Positions 47 through 64,000 of a DNA stretch of 64,000 nucleotides are shown here, in pieces. The DNA lies in contig JBEWZL010000239.1 in the NCBI GenBank assembly GCA_045837725.1, positions 682,001-746,000 of the forward strand, given 5' to 3'. Made by a program: the position numbers and the translations under genes. The notes beneath the pieces are model-generated. The model saw nothing but the letters and a program-made list of their open reading frames with translations. It ran no database searches and had not been told where the DNA came from. This stretch comes from Vermamoeba vermiformis. Its lineage: Eukaryota. How positions within the stretch are numbered: position 1 is the stretch's first letter; every line of letters begins with the position of its first letter.

Positions 47-2805
47 CCTTCACGTGCTGCCATTTTGAAGTTGACATCTTGCACATTGATCGAGGGCTTC
101 CAGTCATCGAGACATTTGGGTCTAAATGTCACAAGCACTTGTTGCGTGGTTTCGAGTAGCACTGCGTCATTGGTGGTGGCATTCATCGCTAAGACCAGTG
201 TGACATTAGTGCCGAGCAGTGACTCGTCGTCAGGCACGGTCAGTTCGAGCTGAATAGCGCGCGTGCTCTGTGATTGAAGTGTCACGAGAGCTGTGCCAGT
301 GACATTTCCAGCGAGTTGTTCTTTGCTGTCGATCCACTGATACGGCCAGGCAGGGGACAATACGCGCACGTCAAACTGCTGCTCTTCACACGAGAATGAA
401 TGCCCATTCTCCAGTGTGATGTCGATGGTAAGCTGCAAGCATTAGTTTGATGCTTAATAAGAAGGGTATGGCTTACCTTTCCACCGATCCTGGCCAGTGC
501 CGTGCTGTTCGTTATTATTGCCGGCGGGTTCTTTTGACACGTGTCAGGAAAGACAACGCCAAGTGTCAACATCGAATTGTGTGAAGTGGAGTTGTAGCTG
601 TTAGTGCCATTCAAATGAAACTTGAATGCAGATAGTGTCAATGACGATGTGCCTTGATAACTGAACTGACACTCGACATTGCAAGTCTGTTGCGGCAACA
701 AGAACAACGAATTGGGCGTGCATTGAACGTCCCAGTCTTGGATCTGACTGAAATAAAAGTTGTAATTCAATGGCACGCACGTCATCGTGTCAGCATTGGT
801 CACGGAAAGTGTCACATTGAATTGACTTCGCGTGTCCTTCAAATGAATGAATTGAGTCGTGCTCGTGCTCAATGTGTTGTTCATATCTGCTGCCCAGAGT
901 GTCATGTCGGGAATATAAGAACGCTTCTTTGATGGCGGCAGCAACGGATATTCACCCGTTGTAGTTGTCACGAGTGACGTTGGCAAGAAGTAATCGGAGT
1001 GCGGCAGCACTGTGCTGTATGAATTGCCTAACAAGGAAATATTAGAACGTGTTGGTTTCTCGGTTAGTGACGTACTAATGGTGCAGTAGAAGTGTATGGT
1101 GACGGTGAGTTCGGCTTGATTTTTGTTGAACGTTCTCAAGCTGTCATAACGAATGCCAAAGGTCACCGCTGGATCACGATAAAACTCGCCAGGTCTCAAT
1201 TCAGTCACGTATTGCGTCGGTGCGTTGAAGTAATTCACATGCACAATCAAGCTACAAGTCGTTAGTCAGACATACTTTGTACTTGTTGGTGCGTACCTGT
1301 CTTCTGACACGACATTTTCTCCGTGATAAAACGAGAAAAAGAAGTACGGTAGTGGATTTCGATTGTACTCATCGGCCTTCTTAATCTTCAGTGCCATGTA
1401 CGAGCTATTGGCTGAGTTTTGTGGCAATTGATTGGCCGGTGACAGCGTGTACGTGCCTGCTGTGCTGACTTCTAAGACCTTCTCTGGCGGTATCCAGCCC
1501 AGTTGGACTATAAATAGAACATGTTAATTTGCATCCACGTGTCGTGTAGCGCACGTACTTCTGTACGGGGCGATGAACTGAAATATTTCTGCGTGCTCCA
1601 CCACTGATTGCCCATCCAGCCCGTAGGATCGCCGTACTCGACGAACTCGCCGCTCAACATTAATTTCCTGCCGGCGTGTCGCAGTCCAAAGTTGTGGCCG
1701 AGCTCGTGAACATACACACCGAGATTGTCACAGTTGGACACCCACGTGCGACACAACTCATTGCAGCCTACATTGCCGAGACCATTCCACTTGCACAGCT
1801 AATGAATCGGATTAATATGAAGTCTATTGGCAGTGATGAGACGTACCGTTAAGTGAAGGTGCGGACTGCTGGGCAACACGAAGATGTGATGTTCGTAGCG
1901 ACTGAACTCAACGCCATCACGTTCACGCGCCATCTGAGTAGCTCTGTCAGCCCAGTAGTCTGGCCTGCAATAAGGTTCATCGGCTATTTTTAGATCAAAA
2001 TCATAAGGACCGTAGACATCCATCGTGTCAACTGCAGATCGAGCATTAAAAAAAACAGATCAAATAAATATGTTCTACGTACGGTTATATTGCCTAAATG
2101 AGACTTTGCCAAATGACTGCAGCTCATAAATGCGTTTGTTGCTGAGCTCTGTTATGTTTGAGGTGATCTGAGTGTTCCATAAAGTACGCGCGACATCTTG
2201 GCGCGAACACGAGACCTTAAAGCCAACGGTTAGTAAAGTATTACAGTAGTGTAATAGATTATTTAGAGCTTACCTGCTCGTCAATGAAGTTTATTATAAT
2301 CGCCACCGCTCGTCTAACCGTAACTGCATTTGATGGTGTGTCGAGTGTCGCTCGTTTATTGATGGAACCTTCGATATTATGCTGCGATATGTAAATTAGA
2401 AACGTAATTTCTCTTCAGTAATGCCGTGCTAGCCAGATGTAACGATTTAAAATTTCTTACCAGTTTTATGGACGTTACATTAAATAATTTGTGACTTTTG
2501 TCGATTTTAGTAATATTTGGTAGTGTATTTTCAGCTATATGATGGCCTTGAACAGTTAGAATCATGCCAGATCGCAGGTCATACGACACTTCGCTATCTA
2601 CATTGAGCAGTTGATATTCACCACCGCCATTATTTTTACTGCCTTTAATTATGTGTATTATTTCAGCATGCTGAGTTTCAAAATTATCTGCTTGGTAGAT
2701 TTGGAGTTCTCCAAAGATCTCATTGTAGGCGGTTACTGTACATAATAAATTAAAATATATTACAAATATACACACTACTCGAGAGAGTAATGTGTATTTC
2801 GCCAT
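47..2805 (-). CDS. Secreted peptidase M11 (gametolysin-like) metzincin with C-terminal beta-rich repeats; multi-exon, 3' end runs off the window
   Basis: Signal peptide MAKYTLLSRVVCIFVIYFNLLCTVTA; zinc motif HELGHNFGLRH followed by EYGDPTGWMG (Met-turn); GT-AG introns join ORFs 2377-2805, 1799-2023, 1508-1756, 282-1250 and 43-438; a donor at 46 leads out of the window. Confidence 0.85.
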
Positions 2806-2937
2806 GGCGAACTGATTAAATAAAAAAAGGTGAAAGGAATTTTGGCTCGTGACTCGTACGCGTGACCTAAAAACACAGGTTTGTCAACAAATGTAGTGGG
2901 TAAGATAGGCACAAAGAGGTTCAAAAATACAAGTTTA

Positions 2938-4102
2938 TTATTGTGCCGGCGCGTCTTTCATCTCAACATCAGCAGCGTTGCTATTGCTGGGCTGCGCAGT
3001 GTCTGATTGGCCGTTGTGTTCACTCGTCGTATTCGCGTCGTCTTTAACAGCACCCGGCTCGCTACCATCTTCTTTCACGTCCATTTTCTCGTCTTCAATG
3101 GCACCCTCTTCACTCGGTCTGTCATCATTCTGCGCACTCGTGTCAGGATTTGACGCCACTTCGCTGTCAGGGCGCTGACTCGACTCGTCCATGGGCAAGT
3201 CAATCTGTTGTGTCTGTTGCATCAATAACTCGCGTAGTTGTTGCTCGCGATCGAATTGTTCTTCCATATTCAACTCTCGTTCGAGCTCGTTGATAGAATA
3301 CAAGAGCAATTGGAACTGTTTCGTGCGCAAATCTAGCTTTGAATTTACAACTGCGCTCTCTGATTCAATGAGTGAAAGTTCTTTGCTGACTTTATCCAGG
3401 TCCCTATTGTCACATATTAGCACCATATCGATAATACTAATCGGCGTGCGTCTTACTTTTGCAGTGTTTCTCTTGATGGTAATTCGTTTATTAATTTTGC
3501 TATGGCGTCGTATTCTTCTTTATTCTTCCTAATTACTTTTTGTTTTTCTAATTCTTGTTTGAGCGAGACTATATCTTGCTTCACTATATTAATCTCATTT
3601 TCTAAAGGACAGAGAATTAGCACGAAAAATTCTATCAATGTTATAATCAGTAGTGGACCGTACCTGTTTCGCCAAATGATTTTTGATAATTTTTTGCTTC
3701 TCTTAAGCACGCAGCTGAAATTAGACTCGTGCGTTCGTGGGAATATTGATATTGTTCGAGTTCTCTGATTAACTCGTTGAAAACTTGCGTGCTACTCGAT
3801 TAAAAATTAGAACAGGCATATACAAATATAGTTATTGAATATTCTCAACTTTTGTCCCCTCTCATAATTAAATAAAAATTATGGCAATTATTTTTTCTTT
3901 TGGATCGCGTATTTACCTCTGTTCGGCATCTTCACCGTCTAAAACTATATCTGAAAATGAAATGAATTTTTCCAAGCACGAATTTAAAGGTGTTTCGTTG
4001 TATAACAAGCGCGAGACGATCGCATCTAAGACATGAAATTAGTGGCTAGGTAGCTTTATTTTATATCATACCGTTGATTTCTTGATCTTCTCGTTGCGCC
4101 AT
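2938..4102 (-). CDS. THOC7: THO complex subunit 7 (THOC7/Mft1 family), spliced
   Basis: LKQELEKQKVIRKNKEEYDAIAKLINELPSR and SKLDLRTKQFQLLLYSINEL match the THOC7 pattern; acidic low-complexity tail; ATG at 4102. Confidence 0.85.
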
Positions 4103-4240
4103 TGTATATAGATACTATGAATATAACAAAATAAAACTTGAGCAAAAATTTTGACCGCGCCAGAAACATTCGTCCAAAAAAGGAAACATTTTGTACTGGC
4201 TGTGTTCATTTTCAAATCAACTTCGTACAAGAGACCACAA

Positions 4241-5210
4241 ATGGACTTTGAAGCTCTAATCGGTCAAATCGGCGACCTCGAACGAATCAATCGCGACGAA
4301 GAGCGCAAGTTGATCGAGGAAAAACAAAGGCATGACTCAACCAAGCGAGAACTCGATAAAGGTACAAGCAGCATAATAAATAAGATATACTAATTCTTTA
4401 TGCAGCTTCGACGGAGCTCAAGAGCCAGAAAGAGAAAGAAGTCTTGCTGCTCGAGCGCGTCACTGCGCTGATGACGGAGAAAGAAACGGAGTCCAAGACT
4501 GTTCGTCAGCTTAAGGAGACCATCAAGAGCTTGAAGAAGGAGAATGAGGTGTTAAAGGAGCATAGCGCTAATGAAATCAAGTTGACTAGAGAGAAGCGGT
4601 AAGATCGCGTAACGGATCGTAACGACGCTAATTAAGTTGTAGCGAGGAATATATTGCTGGCTTAACCTTGGCTAACGAGCAACTGCGCAAGATTCGCGAG
4701 CACCAAGCCATCTATGGCATCAACAAAGACGAGAGTCCCGTTATTAAAGAAGTCGCGCACGTGGTCGATCCAGCGCTGGTTGCCGAACGAGATCAGGCTC
4801 TTCGCAGAGTCAACGAGGCCGAACGAAAGGTTCAAGGTCTGGAATCGACTGCCAAGGATCTTGAAGAGACAGTACAAGGCCTAAGAGAGCTTTTGGCTAC
4901 CAAAGAGGAAGAGATCCAGAACTTGCGCGAGCAATCGTCAAGACCTCCAGCGGCTGCCGTGGAACCAGCACCGCCCCAAGTACAAGCACCCAACTTGTCT
5001 GCTGAAGTCGACGCCCTCAAGAAGGAAGTGACTCAAAAAGAGGCCGAAGTCGCGATGGTGTACAAAGAACTCGAGAAGTTGGACCAGTACTGCAAGACCC
5101 TCGAAGAGAATGTCACCAGCTTCCACGAGCTATTCGCGCAGGTCCAAGCTTCAGCCCAAGAGTTGAAGTGCCCGGGCTGTGGTGCTGCAGTGCCGTTCCC
5201 AATCTCGTAA
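4241..5210 (+). CDS. Coiled-coil protein of unknown function with a C-terminal CxxC (KCPGCG); 3 exons
   Basis: Heptad-rich E/K/L sequence in ORFs 4151-4393 and 4668-5210 joined by short GT-AG introns. Confidence 0.7.
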
Positions 5211-5288
5211 TTGTCGCGACAAGTGTTGGTTGGGCATTGTTTCTATTAGAACAAAATTTACTTAGTTAATAAAACACTTACAAGACGC

Positions 5289-6914
5289 TTATCGTCTTTG
5301 TTTCTTCTTATGTCTGTAATCGTCTTCGTCCGAGTCCTCATCGCTGAAACTACCTTCTGACACGTCATCATCGTCCACCACAAATCCCGCGAGGTCTTTC
5401 TCCATCTTACGTTCATTACGCAACACTGCACCTCGTGCTTTGGTCTCTTTGGCTGCGAGAATTCGTCTCTCGACAGCTTCTTCGTCCTATAGACATGGTT
5501 AAAACGATGCAATTAAATGAATCGAGCACGTACGTCTTTATCCCCCACGCGTCTGTATTGAGCCTTAATAGCACCGACGTTGCCCTCATTATCAGAGTCG
5601 TCGTTCAAATAGTCTTCGTTGAACTCTTGTCCTCGTGAAGTTCGTCGCGAGGGTTTCATTCCGCCCTTCTTTAGTGACTCTTTGCGCGCTTGTTCTTGTG
5701 TAAAGTCCTCAGGATTGACCAAACGAGTAAACACTGCAGCACGTCAATATCACAACCGAAGCTGACATCCTTGCTTGACTTACATTTACTGCTTCTCTTT
5801 TTGGTTTCTTTCGCGTCCAATAACATGGCTCGCTTTCTCTTGCCGGCCACTGCGACAGGCACGAAGTTCATCTTGCGTTGCAGTTTCTGATCCATTTCAA
5901 TATAGCCCTTTTGTCGCACGAAAACATGGCGGTGATCACTAATCTGTTGGTCGCGCACTTCAAATGGCGTGTTACCCACAAACAGGTGCATGCTGCCATC
6001 GGACCAACGGACAAGGCGTGTGTTCGTTTGTTTCTGAATGATTATTAGCGTTGCTTAATATCCTGTACTCGACTTACTGTTTGAAGTGATGTGTCGGTCT
6101 TGTCATTTGAGCCTCTAGGAGTCCATCGCCATCGAATGACGCTCTCTGATTTAAACCGGATCTTATCGAAACCTTCCTCTCTGTGGTTGTTACAGTTAGC
6201 CACTAATGATCAAATATCGATGTTAACGTACACATATAATTCCGGTTGTTGATCTACGCCATCGTATGTGCTCGGGTCATAAGGGATGTTTTGCACACCA
6301 ACGATTGAGGGTTTAATTCGGACGAAATGGATCTTGCCAAAACAAATTAATTTGAGCCACAAAAAATATAATATGTATAGTTCGCAACACATATAACAAT
6401 AATCCATCAATAAAAAGGCAATAGAATTGTTCAGGAATTTTTGTTAATTTTTCAAATTACCTTAGCGTTTTCTGGAATGTGTGGAACAGGTTCTGAAGTA
6501 ATAAGTGTGACGCCAGTCGTTTGCGTTTCTTCTCCTGTAAGTCTTTGTGCACCTTTTTTGTTTGTAGTAAAAGTTGAGGTGGTCAGTTTGGCATCTACTT
6601 CATCCTCATCCGAGTGCAAGCTCACATCATCATTAAACAATGCATCGACATTTGTCTCGTCAATATTGTTATTATTGTTAATATTTCCATTGCTGGTTGT
6701 AAGTGGGACTTCAGATTTAAACTCCTCTTGCTCTTCTTCCGAATCTGCACCAAATAAATCTTCCAATAATTTTTGCTTATTTACCTTTGGCGTCTCATCC
6801 TAAATTTACATTATAATTAGCATTATTATTTTTTGGGATGGAATAAATGGATCAAATCCAATTGCAACGGTCATTTACCCTTTCAATCTCCATACTATTC
6901 TCGTCTTGCGACAT
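5289..6914 (-). CDS. LEO1: Paf1 complex subunit Leo1, spliced
   Basis: Acidic N-terminus (DLFGADSEEE); Leo1 core SVIRWRW...TNTRLVRWSDGSMHLFVG; acidic/basic C-terminus. Confidence 0.9.
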
Positions 6915-58602: not shown

Positions 58603-60087
58603 ATGAAAGTAGCATATTTGCTTTTGATCCTTGCCTCGATCTGCCACAGTTACCATGCCCGCTGGTTCGGTAAGTCTCTTGTAATAATATAATACACCGT
58701 AATTAGTGGAAATAATTCTCCTCATTTGTTTCAGATCAAGTCACAAACTTTCAGTCCGGATTGCCTTCCAAAAATTTGAGAGACGTGTCTTTTACAGCCT
58801 TCAATCAAGAGTGGAAAATCAGATTATGGCCCAATACTCACTTCCACCGTAGCAGCGAAAGCGCCTCAGCCCCGATCTCGACTTACTGGATCGGTACCGT
58901 ACTGAGCACTCGAGGAAGCGACTGCAGCGTCACATTAGAAGCAGATGGCTCCATATTTTCAGCTCATATCTTATTTCCTAATGGAAGACAATTTCGTATA
59001 ACAAGAGTCGCAGATTTTGTCGAAAAACACGGCGAGCTTCAAAAAGAAGTGCTGACCCAACTTAAGAACGAAGATCTGATAATTTTTGACGTCAACAGAC
59101 GACAAGGACACGTAAAGAGACAATCGCCGAGTAAGTACTTTGAAATGGCTATTTTCCCGTGCCTTTACTAAAATAATCGTTGTAGCGCGCGAAAATGACG
59201 GAATCGAAGTACGTGGCATTGAACTGCCTCGTGAAATACCCACTACTCCGTCAACTATCTCTATTAACGACACTCTGCCCGCTCCTCGCTGGAATCAAAG
59301 CCTCATCTTGTACGTGGATCAAGCAATGATCGACAGTCACGGAAGCTTCGATAAAGCCGCTCAAATCACGCTTAGCGCAATGAATGACGTAAACTTGATT
59401 ATGCGACATAACGGCCTCCGCGAATGGACCGTCAAAACTGAAGTACGACAAGCAGCTGATGGTGTTGTGACGAGCACTAACACTTTGCGCGACGTCCTTG
59501 ATCAGTAAGTTATTTAACAAAAATTATCGTGCCTGAGAGTCTAATGAGTTTATTTTATTAGGTTCAAGAGCGCGAGAAGCCAAGAGATGCAAGAGTCCGA
59601 TCCCGATTGCTCGCTGTTAGTTACTGGTCGCGATGATCTCAAGACGGGTACGATTGGCTGGGCGTTCGTTGGTACGACTTGCATGAAGTGGACAACTCAA
59701 CAACAGACTCGCGATGATTGGAAAGACGTGGCATCACTCTGCAGTGCCGTCGTTAGTGACATTGGATTGCATCTCTATTCAATTATCACTCACGAGCTTG
59801 GTCATGTGCTTGGTTCTCGCCATATTGAAGACGCATCGGATGATATTATGCATCCTGAAGTACCCCTGGTAGATCTTGCTGCTACTCGCTTCACATGTGC
59901 TTCAAAATCTTCACTTGTTGCTGATTGCTCTGGCAATGTCAAATACACTTGTGATCCTACTGCTCCTTTCAATGAGAATGATCCTGCCTTCAACAATCCA
60001 CAGTTGTACATGTTACTTGGTGCTGGATCCATTTCATCCCCATTCAGCTGGTTGACTGCTGTAGTATGCTTTCTGTTCTTAGTTTAA
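58603..60087 (+). CDS. Reprolysin-like (M12B) zinc metalloprotease, signal peptide plus GPI-type tail
   Basis: MKVAYLLLILASIC; GTIGWAFVGTTC; THELGHVLGSRH...DIMHP (Met-turn); hydrophobic C-terminus. Confidence 0.88.
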
Positions 60088-60399
60088 CTTAATTTATTTG
60101 TAAATGTTGTACATACTGTAATTACTGTAAATAATTGGAGATTTAATGCAAAACCCTTGCCATAACTTGCTGGATAAAACAATAGTAAGTTTCACACCAA
60201 TGGAGATAAATATTTTCTTGCCATTTCTCCTTGGAATAATCTGGCACAAGCTCATGTTTTATTAAAGATTTCCTCAGAATCTGCAACCCCCTCCTCTTGA
60301 AGTTTTGGTTGCTGTTCATTAAGTGCAGTGTTGATATCATTAAAGTCCAGTTGGTTGTTCCAGCACCTACAGGGTCCTGGACAGAATTTGAAGCAATAT

Positions 60400-61930
60400 A
60401 TTCTTTCTTAAGCTTGAGATAGCAAGCACTTGAACCATCTTGACTGAAGTATCTTTGCTTAATTAAATCATTATTAGTAAGTGTAAATTGATATTTCTAA
60501 GCTGTAATTGAATGATAATTGTTGGTAGATCCAGAGCCTGTCAATCCATCTTTTCACCACTACTTGCCAGCAACCTATAATGCAACAATGGCAGTGCCAA
60601 AACAAGAGATTACAGGACAAAGAAGCAACCCAAAAAGTTGATTCTGATGACACACCTGGAGCCAGTTGAACCTGGTTTTGATTTTAGATATTTATTGGAA
60701 GACAATAACACATGTTCTAAACCTGCAGTACCTTTGATTATTTAAGTATAGATATTGAGCAGAGTAGATCTGGATATTTCACCACAATAACCACAAATGC
60801 CTGTTTTTTCAGCCATTGTGTTGTGTAGTGGTACACACTCTGGAGCAATCTGGTATGCATACCAAATTTCCATTTTTAGTCAAGTACATGTTGCAAGTAA
60901 GGTTTGGTTTGGTTTGGAGAGTTCGGTGCCCTTCAATCAACTAGTTTTAAAGAAATCATTAAAGAGTAGTGAGCACTACGAGATAGAAAAGGCTGTGTAT
61001 ACAAAGATCCACCAGTTGGCCATGGAGTAAGTGTAGAAATTGATATATCCCCTCAATAATGATTTTTTAGCGACCTGAAAAGACATTTTCCAGAGCCAAT
61101 TGGTTTTAATGACAAAGAGCACTGCATATTTGTTGGGTTTGAATCACCCACCACCATTTTTACAGCGTTAAAAGCAAAATCACTGGCCCCTTTTGCCAAA
61201 GGGTTAATTGCTCAGTTCTCAAAAGTATTGTGATACATGCACATCTGCATGGATGTACCTTGGGAATATTCTTTACAGAACCTTCTCCTCAGTCACAAAT
61301 TCTATCATTCAGAAGTTGATGGAAAAGTGATCTGAGCCCCTCTGCTCATCTTCATTGATTTCACCTCCAAGCAAGATAATGGTAATATAAACTATTTTAA
61401 ACTCTTATTTGCAGTGCAAAGTATGATCAATCAGGGGCCACCTTATTAAGAGCAACTAAAAAGGTTCTAGAAGGTTTGTGCATTGTCACCTACAGGTTGC
61501 ATTAGGGTTAGGATTAGGATGCTAGTACCTGGAGTGTGGCATTTACTAATTCTATCTTGTGAGTTGACATCGGAGCGTTGCTTCTTGCATAAAGATCTTT
61601 CAAAGCCCTATGAAGAAGGTTGTTTGCTGCAAAATAGGTCATTTTACATCAGGGCTATGTGTTCTATTTTACCTAACAATGGTTGTGTCATCCGCTGTAA
61701 GAACTTCTCTCTTAACGTAACAATATTGTTGCCAACCAGGAAGAAGGAAGCAAAATCTGACAATTGAAGGGTTTTATGAGGGCCTTTGTCTGCTAGATGG
61801 CAGATGCAGTTCACCAAGAGATCTTGAAGTGGAATTGAAAAACACTCCCTAAACTTTGTTAATTGTGGAAGCCAATAGCATTTAGTTATAGTTACCACTT
61901 GAAAAAATGCCTCAAAAGACCCTGGTTCAA
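60400..61930 (-). mobile_element. Heavily decayed non-LTR (L1/Tx1-like) retrotransposon 3' region, tentative
   Basis: Stop-interrupted minus-strand remnants in LINE order: VTITKCYWLPQLT..FSIP (about 61830-61900), GGP*LIILCTANKSLK (about 61395-61442), EIWYAYQ...VPL...GICGYCGE..STLLNIY (about 60745-60875, zf-RVT-like); strongly CpG-depleted. Confidence 0.4.
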
Positions 61931-62085
61931 ATTAGATATGGGCTGTTTTTTTTGGTCCACGTAGAGTTCATGGTTGGACCCTATTATCAGTTGCTGATTT
62001 CCCTCTGTTGAAGAGAAATAAAGAATTTACGAGGGAAAAAGGTAATTCAATGTATTTATTTTTAACGAAATCAAGGAATGACTTG

Positions 62086-62702
62086 TTATTTGAACTTTTT
62101 GAGCAGATCAGGGCAGTCTAATGCCTCTTCAGGTAACCATTCATTGTACTGATTACTCCAACCAGACCACTTCACTAGATATTCATCACCATGAACTCCT
62201 CTACGTTTGTCTACTAAATCTTCTACCTCATATTCTTCAGTTGATTTTACCTCTGCTGCTTTATACTTGACTTTTCCAGTTTGCAAATCTCCAGCAATAA
62301 ATTTGTTGTGACATTGATCAAAATTCCATGCTAAGCATTCTGAACAGAAGCATGGTCTCTTTTGATGTTTGATTGTTCCAATCTTGTTCCGAAAAGATGA
62401 AATCATAGGAAGCCTTGATGCCTTTTAAAGGAGTGCAGTCATCTTCTTCATCATCAGAATCATACTCAACCAAAAAAGTGGGGCCACCTGGAACAGTATC
62501 AAAGTGATCTGCAAGCTCTTGGGCATTATTGATGTGAGCATCATCTTATAAAGTGAATTAGCTCTGGTAAATTAAGGAGTAACTTACTATCTAGTAAAAA
62601 TAACCTAGTATTGGATTTCAAAGTTGCACCTCTGCCATCACAAGAACCTTTTCTATGGTATGCAGGATCTACAGCCCATCTGGGTAGGAGAAAGTTGACC
62701 AG
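62086..62702 (-). mobile_element. Pseudogenised DNA-transposase C-terminus (Sola2-like) fused to a chromodomain, with a spliceosomal intron
   Basis: RWAVDPAYHRKGSCDGRGATLK, intron, INNAQELADHF...PFKGIK (frameshifts), KRPCFCSECLAWNFDQCHN, then YEVEDLVDKR..EYLVKWSGWSNQYNEWLPEEALDCPDLLKKF. Confidence 0.65.
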
Positions 62703-62736
62703 CTAAAATGGTCGTTTATTGACATATGTTATTACA

Positions 62737-63255
62737 AGCATATGACATTGGGTAAATTGAAAGAACAACATAGGCTATTTAGCTAATAGCATATGCTATT
62801 TACAGCCAAGTACACCCTTTTGGCTGGCCCAGGACAAGGATTTCAGGGAAAAAATGTACTGCCCCTCTGCTTGTTTTTAGCATTGTGATTCATTACACAC
62901 TCACAAAAGCATATGCTCTGAAAAACGTCCACATGAAAAATAGCATATGCTGTTGCATCCGCTCCGCTGATGTTTGCTGCCCTGGTCCATTTTTTGTTGT
63001 TTTCTTCTTTTTCAATGTATTCATATATGTAAGTGGGCTTGCCCATATAGGGCTAGCCCTGTCACCCCCCCTCAAAAAAATAAAGAATATTCTACCCGAT
63101 CATTTTTTACTTAAGCAAAATTTTACTTTGGAAAATTATCCACAGGAAAAAAGAAGTCTCACCCTGAGTGACTCTCAAAAAAACAAAGTCCTGCAGGTCG
63201 TCTCCACACGGAGACGATCTCATAAAAAAACAAAGTCCTAGTAGGTCGTCTCCAC
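62737..63255. repeat. Cluster of short palindromes and a tandem repeat with a hairpin; possible element terminus
   Basis: AGCATATG(CT) at 62737, 62788, 62908, 62942 (perfect 16-bp palindrome 62785-62800); about 35-nt direct repeat 63173-63207 / 63218-63255; hairpin TCGTCTCC-acac-GGAGACGA 63198-63217. Confidence 0.6.
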
Positions 63256-63325
63256 GTGCCCTAAAAGAGGCTTCAACGCGCTCCATAATAATTCCACTAT
63301 TTTTACGCCCTCTCTCTTATTAATA

Positions 63326-64000
63326 ATGGATCGAAATTCCCGAAAGGCGAAGGATTCGATCAAAAAGAAGGTAAAATTATTTTCGCCTTTAGCCCGCTTT
63401 CTCAACCAATTCCCGGCCATTATAATATTATAAATTTTAATTATATTGCATATTTATTGCTGTACTAATTTTTACTTTAGGAGAAAAAGAAACAACTTAA
63501 TCCGGATGTGATCGAGGACGTAAGAACTTACGTGGAATTCTTAGTTCTTGCCCGTAATCGATCCACGCCGAGTAGAACGGTCAACGAGTACATGCAGAAG
63601 CTTTTCAAGTCCTTGCCGTACTATGCACCGTTTTGTCACCGAGCGGATTTCGTTTTTTTCTACGTGGTGTTCGACTTCCACGGGATGCTTCCCCCAACCC
63701 CTGAAGCTACCATGGCGTATCCAAAGTGGCTCAAATCCTACCGGCAATTGGTCGCCGAAGGCCTTGGTACCGTCGTTGGAGCGAATCCGGTGTGGCAAGG
63801 CTTCATGGAGCTCATGCAGCGATTCCCGAAGCTCCTAGCGTCTGCGCAACAAAATATCTGCATGCCAAACGTCACGAAGAGCATCGTCAACAACATCGCA
63901 ACGTCAACCATTCACGAAGAGTGTGCCAAACTTTGGTGCGCGATGCGGTACAACCCGAAGTACTGGGTTTCGCTGGAGCGTTTAAACGAGCTCCTCAAAG
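63326..64000 (+). CDS. Hypothetical protein, 5' part (exon 63326-63370, intron 63371-63480, exon open to window end)
   Basis: ATG...AAG|gtaaa and ttag|GAG splice in phase 0; frame EKKKQLNPDVIEDVRTY...YWVSLERLNELLK has no stop for 520 nt; CpG-rich again; no family recognised. Confidence 0.55.

Follow-up and report, generated by a model that had tools for sequence, protein, structure and literature searches.

What is the broken reading frame on the minus strand at positions 62086-62702 of this Vermamoeba vermiformis sequence, and what might a chromodomain do at the end of a transposase? The window, hereafter, is the whole stretch of DNA that was analysed, 64,000 nucleotides in length. An earlier note made from the letters alone had described the feature as the relic of a DNA transposase fused to a C-terminal chromodomain, and had suggested a family of DNA transposons that reads methylated histones to choose its targets. 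Our analysis indicates that the feature is very probably a dead fragment of a Sola2-type DDD transposase gene, with a C-x-C-x2-C-x7-C module and an HP1-like chromodomain at its end.

Structure of the relic and its closest copies

Reading the minus strand recovers the elements that had been listed for this locus: the W-x5 motif, a 43-nt GTAAGT...AG intron, INNAQELADHF and KGIK in the translation, the Cys motif and the chromodomain. The features are given below in the order of the minus strand, with the evidence for each in brackets; X1 designates a run of DNA contigs carrying the same organism label.

about 62683: 5' limit of the relic, where the family homology ends (tblastn, breaks in read-derived contigs, rise in depth)
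62678-62616, minus strand: W-x5-Y-HRKGSCDGRGATLK (read from the strand)
62589-62684, minus strand: exon 1 remnant PRWAVDPAYHRKGSCDGRGATLKSNTRLFLLD (29 of 31 residues identical to the relative P0001)
62545-62587, minus strand: intron GTAAGT...ATAAG, 43 nt, phase 1 (GT..AG borders and collinearity with the relative P0002)
about 62384-62544, minus strand: first part of exon 2, in the upstream frame, DAHINNAQELADHFDTVPGGPTFLVEYDSDDEEDDCTPLKGIKASYDFIFSEQ (blastp and alignment with the relative P0167)
62380-62383, minus strand: single frameshift, GATT, with the extra base at 62382 (one Val codon at this place in P0167)
62362-62364, minus strand: CAA (Gln) codon, Arg in eight relatives (alignment with relatives; the X1 contig has TGA)
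62311-62352, minus strand: Cys motif C-x-C-x2-C-x7-C (CFCSECLAWNFDQC), CFCSEC-x7-C followed by HN (read from the strand)
62089-62232, minus strand: HP1-like chromodomain YEVEDLVDKRRGVHGDEYLVKWSGWSNQYNEWLPEEALDCPDLLKKFK (Pfam PF00385, E 2.5e-13)
62086-62088, minus strand: stop codon TAA (read from the strand)
59888-63198: the window's only CpG-depleted block, which holds the relic and its flanking repeats (observed/expected CpG)

The relic is the last ~184 codons of a larger transposase gene. Judged against the aligned relatives, the first ~156 residues of the catalytic core, including two of the three catalytic aspartates, are absent from the window copy, and only the third Asp of the triad is retained. 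The final core strand and the helix bearing this third Asp (codon 62639-62637) are encoded by the exon 1 remnant. A word search with the 53-residue open reading frame found at this end led to P0001 (89% identical over the best local alignment) and its cluster mates P0151 and P0152, all three of which extend ~156 residues upstream of the relic's match. They read HGKGSCDGRGATLK, with HGKG where the window has HRKG: the window's Arg codon AGA (62654-62652) occupies the Gly position of the relatives' motif, and the proposal that HR was once HG is thus borne out at the protein level. The tblastn match of P0001 is confined to 62681-62604 of the window, and when the 167 family proteins were searched by tblastn, their 65 HSPs without exception fell within 62080-62696, which gives one copy in the window.

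Splicing of the intron joins a split codon (a|at = N) and leaves the frame intact, and the spliced relic then runs for 25 residues from the K of 'TLK' to 'DTVPGG', an exact match to the intron-less P0002. The intron is supported because the open reading frames of P0001, P0151, P0152 and P0167 are all interrupted at this very site and the spacing equals that of P0002. From two RNA runs labelled with this species came 5 and 3 partial reads on the relic, all less than 95% alike; as the flanking genes drew none, these reads bear on neither expression nor splicing. Downstream of the intron, the first part of exon 2 is 40% identical to residues 253-305 of P0002 (blastp, E 1.6e-10); past the frameshift, the relic continues as GTIKHQKRPCFCSECLAWNFDQCHN...

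The 112-residue open reading frame that holds the chromodomain found no match among longer proteins in the word index, and a search restricted to near-length proteins led to P0167 (159 aa). P0167 is a single unbroken open reading frame from inside the intron through the chromodomain to the same KKFK stop, and reads ...KGIKSSYDFIFSEQVGTIKHRKRPCFCSEC... When the relic is read through, with an X at the split codon and another at the shift, 121 of 151 residues are identical to P0167 with a single one-residue gap. Two frameshifts near 62395-62430 had been assumed earlier; one is enough, since a single extra base at 62382, once read through, makes the relic collinear with P0167. The distance from KGI to the Cys motif then equals that of the relative P0010, and in the sole X1 unitig covering 62296-62653 base 62382 is missing, so that the frame is restored. 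The same unitig carries two adjacent substitutions at 62363-62364, giving TGA for the window's CAA; CAA and TGA are exactly the pair that deamination of a CGA codon can yield. The differences between X1 and the window could stem from another copy, from allelic variation or from an error of assembly. The window copy itself is inactive, because two catalytic aspartates are lost, HRKG stands in place of HGKG, Gln replaces a conserved Arg and the reading frame is thrown off by the extra base.

Between the core and the chromodomain lies the Cys motif, presumed to form a zinc-binding module. Its cysteines (C223, C225, C228 and C236 in alignment A2) are conserved in at least 90% of the sequences, and a CxCxxC motif occurs ~100 residues downstream of HGKG in many relatives.

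As two broken frames had to be joined to read this gene, and the surrounding block is a patchwork of repeats, one might imagine that a fragment of a separate HP1-like gene has simply come to lie beside a transposase fragment at this locus. P0167, in which both parts stand in one open frame, and six more distant relatives that share the order of core, Cys motif and chromodomain refute such a chance adjacency, to which we attach a practically negligible probability.

Transposase family and fold of the catalytic core

Searched by phmmer against a database of 1.84 billion representatives, P0001 retrieved 1067 representative clusters at E <= 1e-3, 48 at <= 1e-10 and 4 at <= 1e-30, and many family members are 600-800 aa long. 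The core had no Pfam match in the best 150 proteins scanned of the 1067 clusters, and the rve integrase core (PF00665) was likewise without a match in the 150 family proteins scanned, the similarity to integrases being restricted to the level of the fold. Pfam searches of the two upstream relic pieces and of P0001 returned nothing meaningful; the non-transposase assignment that the earlier note had allowed for the upstream motifs thus did not emerge from the profile searches. In alignment A1, which comprises 112 of the 167 proteins (short fragments and near-duplicates omitted), D155, N159, H209, D239, G275, K276, D280 and K287 in the numbering of the relative P0003 are conserved in at least 90% of the sequences. 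The last four of these columns, G275, K276, D280 and K287, map to the exon 1 remnant of the window copy.

An AlphaFold2 model of P0003, computed with the 112-row alignment, reached a pLDDT of 86.2 and a pTM of 0.77. The order of its strands and helices is, as we take it, that of the RNase H fold; of the three catalytic aspartates, D155 sits in strand one, D239 immediately past strand four, and D280 opens the helix that follows strand five. When the model was compared with 48,161 PDB chains by VIA-align, all 22 chains with Z of at least 8 were DDE transposases or integrases: Mos1 (Z 10.2, rmsd 2.8, 164 residues aligned), foamy-virus integrase (Z 10.2), simian, mouse and avian retroviral integrases (Z 9.9-10.0), Metnase (Z 9.7), IstA (Z 9.5), Sleeping Beauty (Z 9.0), TnsB (Z 8.7) and Ty3 integrase (Z 8.2). 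Foldseek also placed the IstA transposase first (E 1.1e-3, probability 0.96), and the remainder of its matches were mostly chromodomains. In this model, the core of P0003, a relative and not the window fragment, is predicted to be an RNase H fold of the transposase/integrase type. This fold and the three conserved aspartates uphold the designation of the feature as the relic of a DDD transposase.

Sola2 is reportedly, after Bao et al. in 2009, a superfamily of eukaryotic DDD cut-and-paste transposons, and the earlier note had given this name to the present family. According to Muszewska et al. 2017 (PMC5751038), Pfam has no model for Sola, and their Supplementary File S1 contains a profile named RNase_H_Sola2, which has 218 positions and is derived from 45 sequences. 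The comparison with this profile was made by eye, unscored, on 160 of its 218 positions (1-58 and 84-185). Within this range, the profile consensus at 27-58, 84-89 and 110-150 recurs, by eye, in P0001 and in alignment A1, in the same order and with similar spacing. The consensus blocks vlilgDfaeny, qdevqskhw, qatlh, h-d-x3-v, vnffsDgcaaqyknkknf and whFfatsh of this part of the profile have as their P0001 counterparts, with the order kept, iitraDFIENW, aQEpSSAHF, QTSIF, H-x4-V, inlTDGASQHFKNRKAMF and RWAVDPAYH. The first and second aspartates are separated by 88 residues in P0001 and 83 in that profile, and the D-to-H distance is 35 in both. Positions 151-185 of the profile look as though they derive from a single sequence, and the profile itself appears to end at the H of HGKG. 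In short, the family and Sola2 have in common five conserved blocks, DFxENY, QS.HW, H-x4-V, sDG...QYKN and W.F...sH followed by GKGxxDG, with their order and spacing, as well as an RNase H-like fold, three acidic Asp and the want of a Pfam model. They differ in that the present branch adds one or two C-terminal chromodomains, and in that the motif of the third Asp is often CD[SA]RG in this family rather than CDGxG. The Sola2 label thus appears to hold at the level of motifs, within the limits of an eye comparison of 160 of 218 positions. A link between the HGKG motif and transposases was not found in the literature searched.

P0003, P0166, P0025 and many others carry a second CxCxxC in a Cys/His-rich stretch upstream of the core, and this N-terminal stretch is presumably the zinc-binding, DNA-recognition part of the family. 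An Atlas search with P0003 gave, as a lead only, scores of 0.84-0.85 with clusters of unnamed animal proteins as the nearest neighbours; DUF7869, which Atlas named, matched none of the family proteins scanned with Pfam.

Genomic setting, CpG depletion and copy number

The relic lies in a CpG-eroded block, as the earlier note had it. The observed/expected ratio of CpG is 0.22 in 60088-63300 and 1.11 in the rest of the window, and TpG and CpA are raised in the block (1.30 and 1.28, against 1.16 and 1.14 elsewhere). The relic has 2 CpG (ratio 0.09). Across 60001-63000, the 1-kb bins give 0.06, 0.19 and 0.22, whereas all other bins of the window fall between 0.76 and 1.43, and there is no CpG at all between 59887 and 60924. 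The block is flanked by the open reading frame of a reprolysin-like peptidase and by an unknown one, and the rest of the window is gene-dense (Rap-GAP, ankyrin, EngA-type GTPase and amino-acid permease, among its genes). The CpG-free zone starts ~200 nt inside the 3' end of the peptidase frame (59888-60087), so that the depletion reaches into the final part of a host gene.

The read-derived contigs of X1 give a second view of this block. A 31.7-kb contig is identical to 60000-61965 (1966 nt) at a depth of 296; this segment is single-copy in X1 and yet CpG-depleted. The relic is represented by short unitigs at a depth of 496-576, about twice that of the flank, which are broken at the relic's edges. 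Beyond the truncated end, the depth rises to ~1946 at 62680-62813 and 4000-5900 at 62948-63349 (1900-5900 across 62680-63349 as a whole, versus 296), which places the relic against high-copy repeats. The decayed element that had been proposed next to the relic stands to this extent, as repeated DNA at 62680-63349; its nature as a recognizable element does not, as the 15 open reading frames of the repeat block between the flanking host-gene frames (17 scanned in all) contain no Pfam family above cut-off. Only one inverted repeat around the block came into question (60454 / 63099, 21 nt, 81%), and it may have arisen by chance.

The copy number of the relic sequence in the host looks low, at about two. 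This figure, the fact that transposon ends were not observed, the spliceosomal-type intron, which would fit a host gene, and the chromatin function that a chromodomain and a nuclease-like core could jointly serve would agree with a decayed duplicate of a domesticated gene, that is, a pseudogene copy of an immobile, transposase-derived chromatin protein. We nevertheless judge such an origin improbable. The three catalytic aspartates and the H, G, K and K columns are at least 90% conserved in the 112 sequences, the chromodomain branch included, and the family, 1067 clusters in size, shares its motifs with a transposon superfamily. Among the cluster members of P0003 and P0010 there are 8 and 7 variants, respectively, of at least 90% identity, on separate contigs and with differing N-termini, and the window fragment is itself truncated against high-copy repeats in a CpG-depleted block.

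In run X3, a water metagenome, the flanks are present with zero depth over 61742-62679, and the contigs part from the window at 61643 and 62683 and continue as different sequence. As no joint spans this gap, its reading as an empty site was set aside, and it is regarded instead as a structural difference. Searches of public contigs yielded no confirmed occurrence, whether with P0004 against metagenome contigs (30 pattern matches) or with alignment A3 against viral (25 pattern matches) and metagenome contigs (224 pattern matches).

Some further small features were observed in this region. A degenerate telomere-like run of the TTAGGG type, cctaatcctaaccctaat on the minus strand, lies at 61500-61530, inside the CpG-poor block. 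Directly upstream of the relic's truncation, 62764-62954 holds four copies of a 16-nt word around the palindrome GCATATGC within 190 nt. At 63170-63260, a short unit AAAAAAACAAAGTCCT..GGTCGTCTCCAC is present in two copies 48 nt apart, with a GGAGACGA/TCGTCTCC hairpin; its depth in the read-derived contigs is 4000-5900, against 296 in flank that is single-copy, and loose ends and variant joints are numerous there. The unit is a small repeat of high copy number and may be a MITE or a satellite.

The chromodomain, its distribution and its proposed role

The chromodomain is complete and in frame, as had been stated earlier. It occupies residues 65-112 of the 112-residue open reading frame and scores 50.2 bits against a cut-off of 25.1 (Pfam PF00385). 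The closest solved structures are those of CBX5 (1.3e-12) and CBX1 (2.9e-12), then CBX3 and Drosophila HP1, with Polycomb-class CBX and CDY proteins next. The three aromatic positions claimed for the window copy are confirmed by alignment: its Y (EEY), W (KW) and W (GW) align with Y, W and F of CBX5 (HP1alpha) and CBX1 (HP1beta), which we take to be the aromatic cage for methyl-lysine. Aromatic residues are kept at these columns in P0167 and most relatives. Likeness to the HP1/CBX proteins (CBX5, CBX1, CBX3 and Drosophila HP1) thus extends from the best structure matches (E 1e-12 to 1e-9) to the aligned cage and an LDCP[DE]L tail. Unlike them, the relic bears its chromodomain on a transposase, without a chromoshadow domain or hinge, and the Glu that follows Trp in the HP1 motif TWEPE is replaced by Leu (EWLPE).

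The fusion is confined to a part of the family. The possibility, raised earlier, that the chromodomain is fused in all copies does not hold, for among the 149 relatives scanned with Pfam, Chromo exceeds its cut-off in six (P0003, P0004, P0005, P0010, P0015 and P0025), all of one branch. Two chromodomains are found by Pfam in P0010 and P0015, a second is seen in P0025 by alignment, and the sequence of P0002 ends inside a chromodomain. The chromodomain relatives share the order Cys-rich N-terminus, core, R-K-x-P-C-x-C-x2-C-x7-C, linker and chromodomain. In a tree of the core (quick IQ-TREE search, unrooted, 102 of the 112 rows, the 10 with fewer than 120 core residues having been dropped), the nine chromodomain rows fall together with P0002, P0001 and P0151 in one group of 20 rows, with an SH-aLRT of 88, below the tool's star level. 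The tails of the remaining eight rows are too short to judge for a chromodomain. Intact copies of this branch do carry the domain, as had been anticipated: besides P0167, every relative in the group that retains its C-terminus bears one or two. Conversely, 35 rows have at least 150 residues after the core but lack a chromodomain, and all of them lie outside the group. This pattern fits, without proving it, a single gain of the chromodomain in one branch.

Based on the above data, we propose the following explanation, which as a whole we consider probable: the feature is a dead fragment of a Sola2-type transposase gene, the intact members of its branch would cut and paste their element, and their chromodomain would tether them to silent chromatin. 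In such members, the RNase H-fold DDD core would carry out the excision and insertion of the element, and the one or two C-terminal chromodomains would most likely anchor the transposase to methylated tails of histones, the mark probably being of the H3K9me kind. As a result, insertions would fall in chromatin that is already silenced and gene-poor, in the manner of the chromodomain-bearing Ty3/Gypsy integrases. We propose targeting because the cage is intact, the sequence is HP1-like and one address is known, in a CpG-poor block; a single locus carries no statistical weight as to insertion bias. We infer both the mobility of this branch and its binding of methyl-lysine. Taken by itself, the targeting role, for which the single CpG-depleted locus and the analogy with chromoviruses argue, seems to us evenly balanced.

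The chromodomain of a genuine Sola2-type transposon could serve ends other than the choice of targets: it might modulate activity or DNA binding, bind a partner, or recruit a silencing that limits the element itself. A precedent is the chromodomain of Tf1 integrase, which is reported to modulate integrase activities and promote cDNA binding, according to the titles of works cited by PMC5803895. The tandem chromodomains of P0010, P0015 and P0025 moreover resemble readers with other modes of binding, and the Leu that stands for the Glu of TWEPE in the window copy points the same way. Against these indications, the window copy, P0167 and most relatives retain aromatic residues at all three cage positions, HP1-class readers of H3K9me are the nearest matches among solved structures, and the relic itself sits in a repeat block depleted of CpG. 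On this balance, we hold a non-targeting role to be rather unlikely, although it retains appreciable weight, and continue to favour tethering to silent chromatin. Still more specific, and accordingly offered as a tentative and somewhat doubtful reading, is the full scenario in which one Sola2 branch would have gained an HP1-like chromodomain once, doubled it later in some lines, and used it to steer integration into H3K9me- and 5mC-marked chromatin.

To our knowledge, targeting by a chromodomain has been established only for the integrases of LTR retrotransposons. Maverick/Polinton elements are DNA-based and their integrase is said to carry a chromodomain; theirs, however, is a retroviral-type (rve) integrase on giant virus-like elements, whereas the present one is a small Sola2-type transposase. 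Chromodomain-bearing Gypsy integrases target silent chromatin (Gao et al. 2008, as cited in PMC6839031 and PMC12477816). The chromoviruses and other Ty3/Gypsy elements share with the relic's family the C-terminal chromodomain and the expected insertion into silent chromatin. In contrast to them, the family has neither rve nor reverse transcriptase, uses a DDD core with HGKG, and would move as DNA by cut and paste, not via RNA; the fusion in a Sola2-type branch would be an independent, convergent gain. In the literature searched, we found no description of a chromodomain fused to Sola2 or to another transposase of the cut-and-paste type; Repbase or the original Sola paper may record such a fusion. 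The authors of GingerRoot sought a chromodomain in their transposases and found none (PMC6839031), and a survey of Ectocarpus reported chromodomains and a Tudor domain on Gypsy elements only (PMC12477816). If true, chromodomain-guided targeting by a classical DNA transposase would be undescribed and convergent with that of chromoviruses.

Very different mobile elements would then have converged on the reading of silent chromatin to find safe landing sites, and this might help to account for the survival of DNA transposons in genomes as compact and gene-dense as that of Vermamoeba vermiformis. Transposases with and without the reader would also form a two-part system in which the redirection of DNA integration by histone marks could be tested. 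The window copy is a fossil, and its value is that of a pointer to the chromodomain clade.

Lastly, residues 561-685 of P0034, a family member outside the chromodomain branch, gave a weak match to an OTU cysteine protease (E 5.4e-4, below cut-off), which hints that other C-terminal add-ons may occur in the Sola2-type family.
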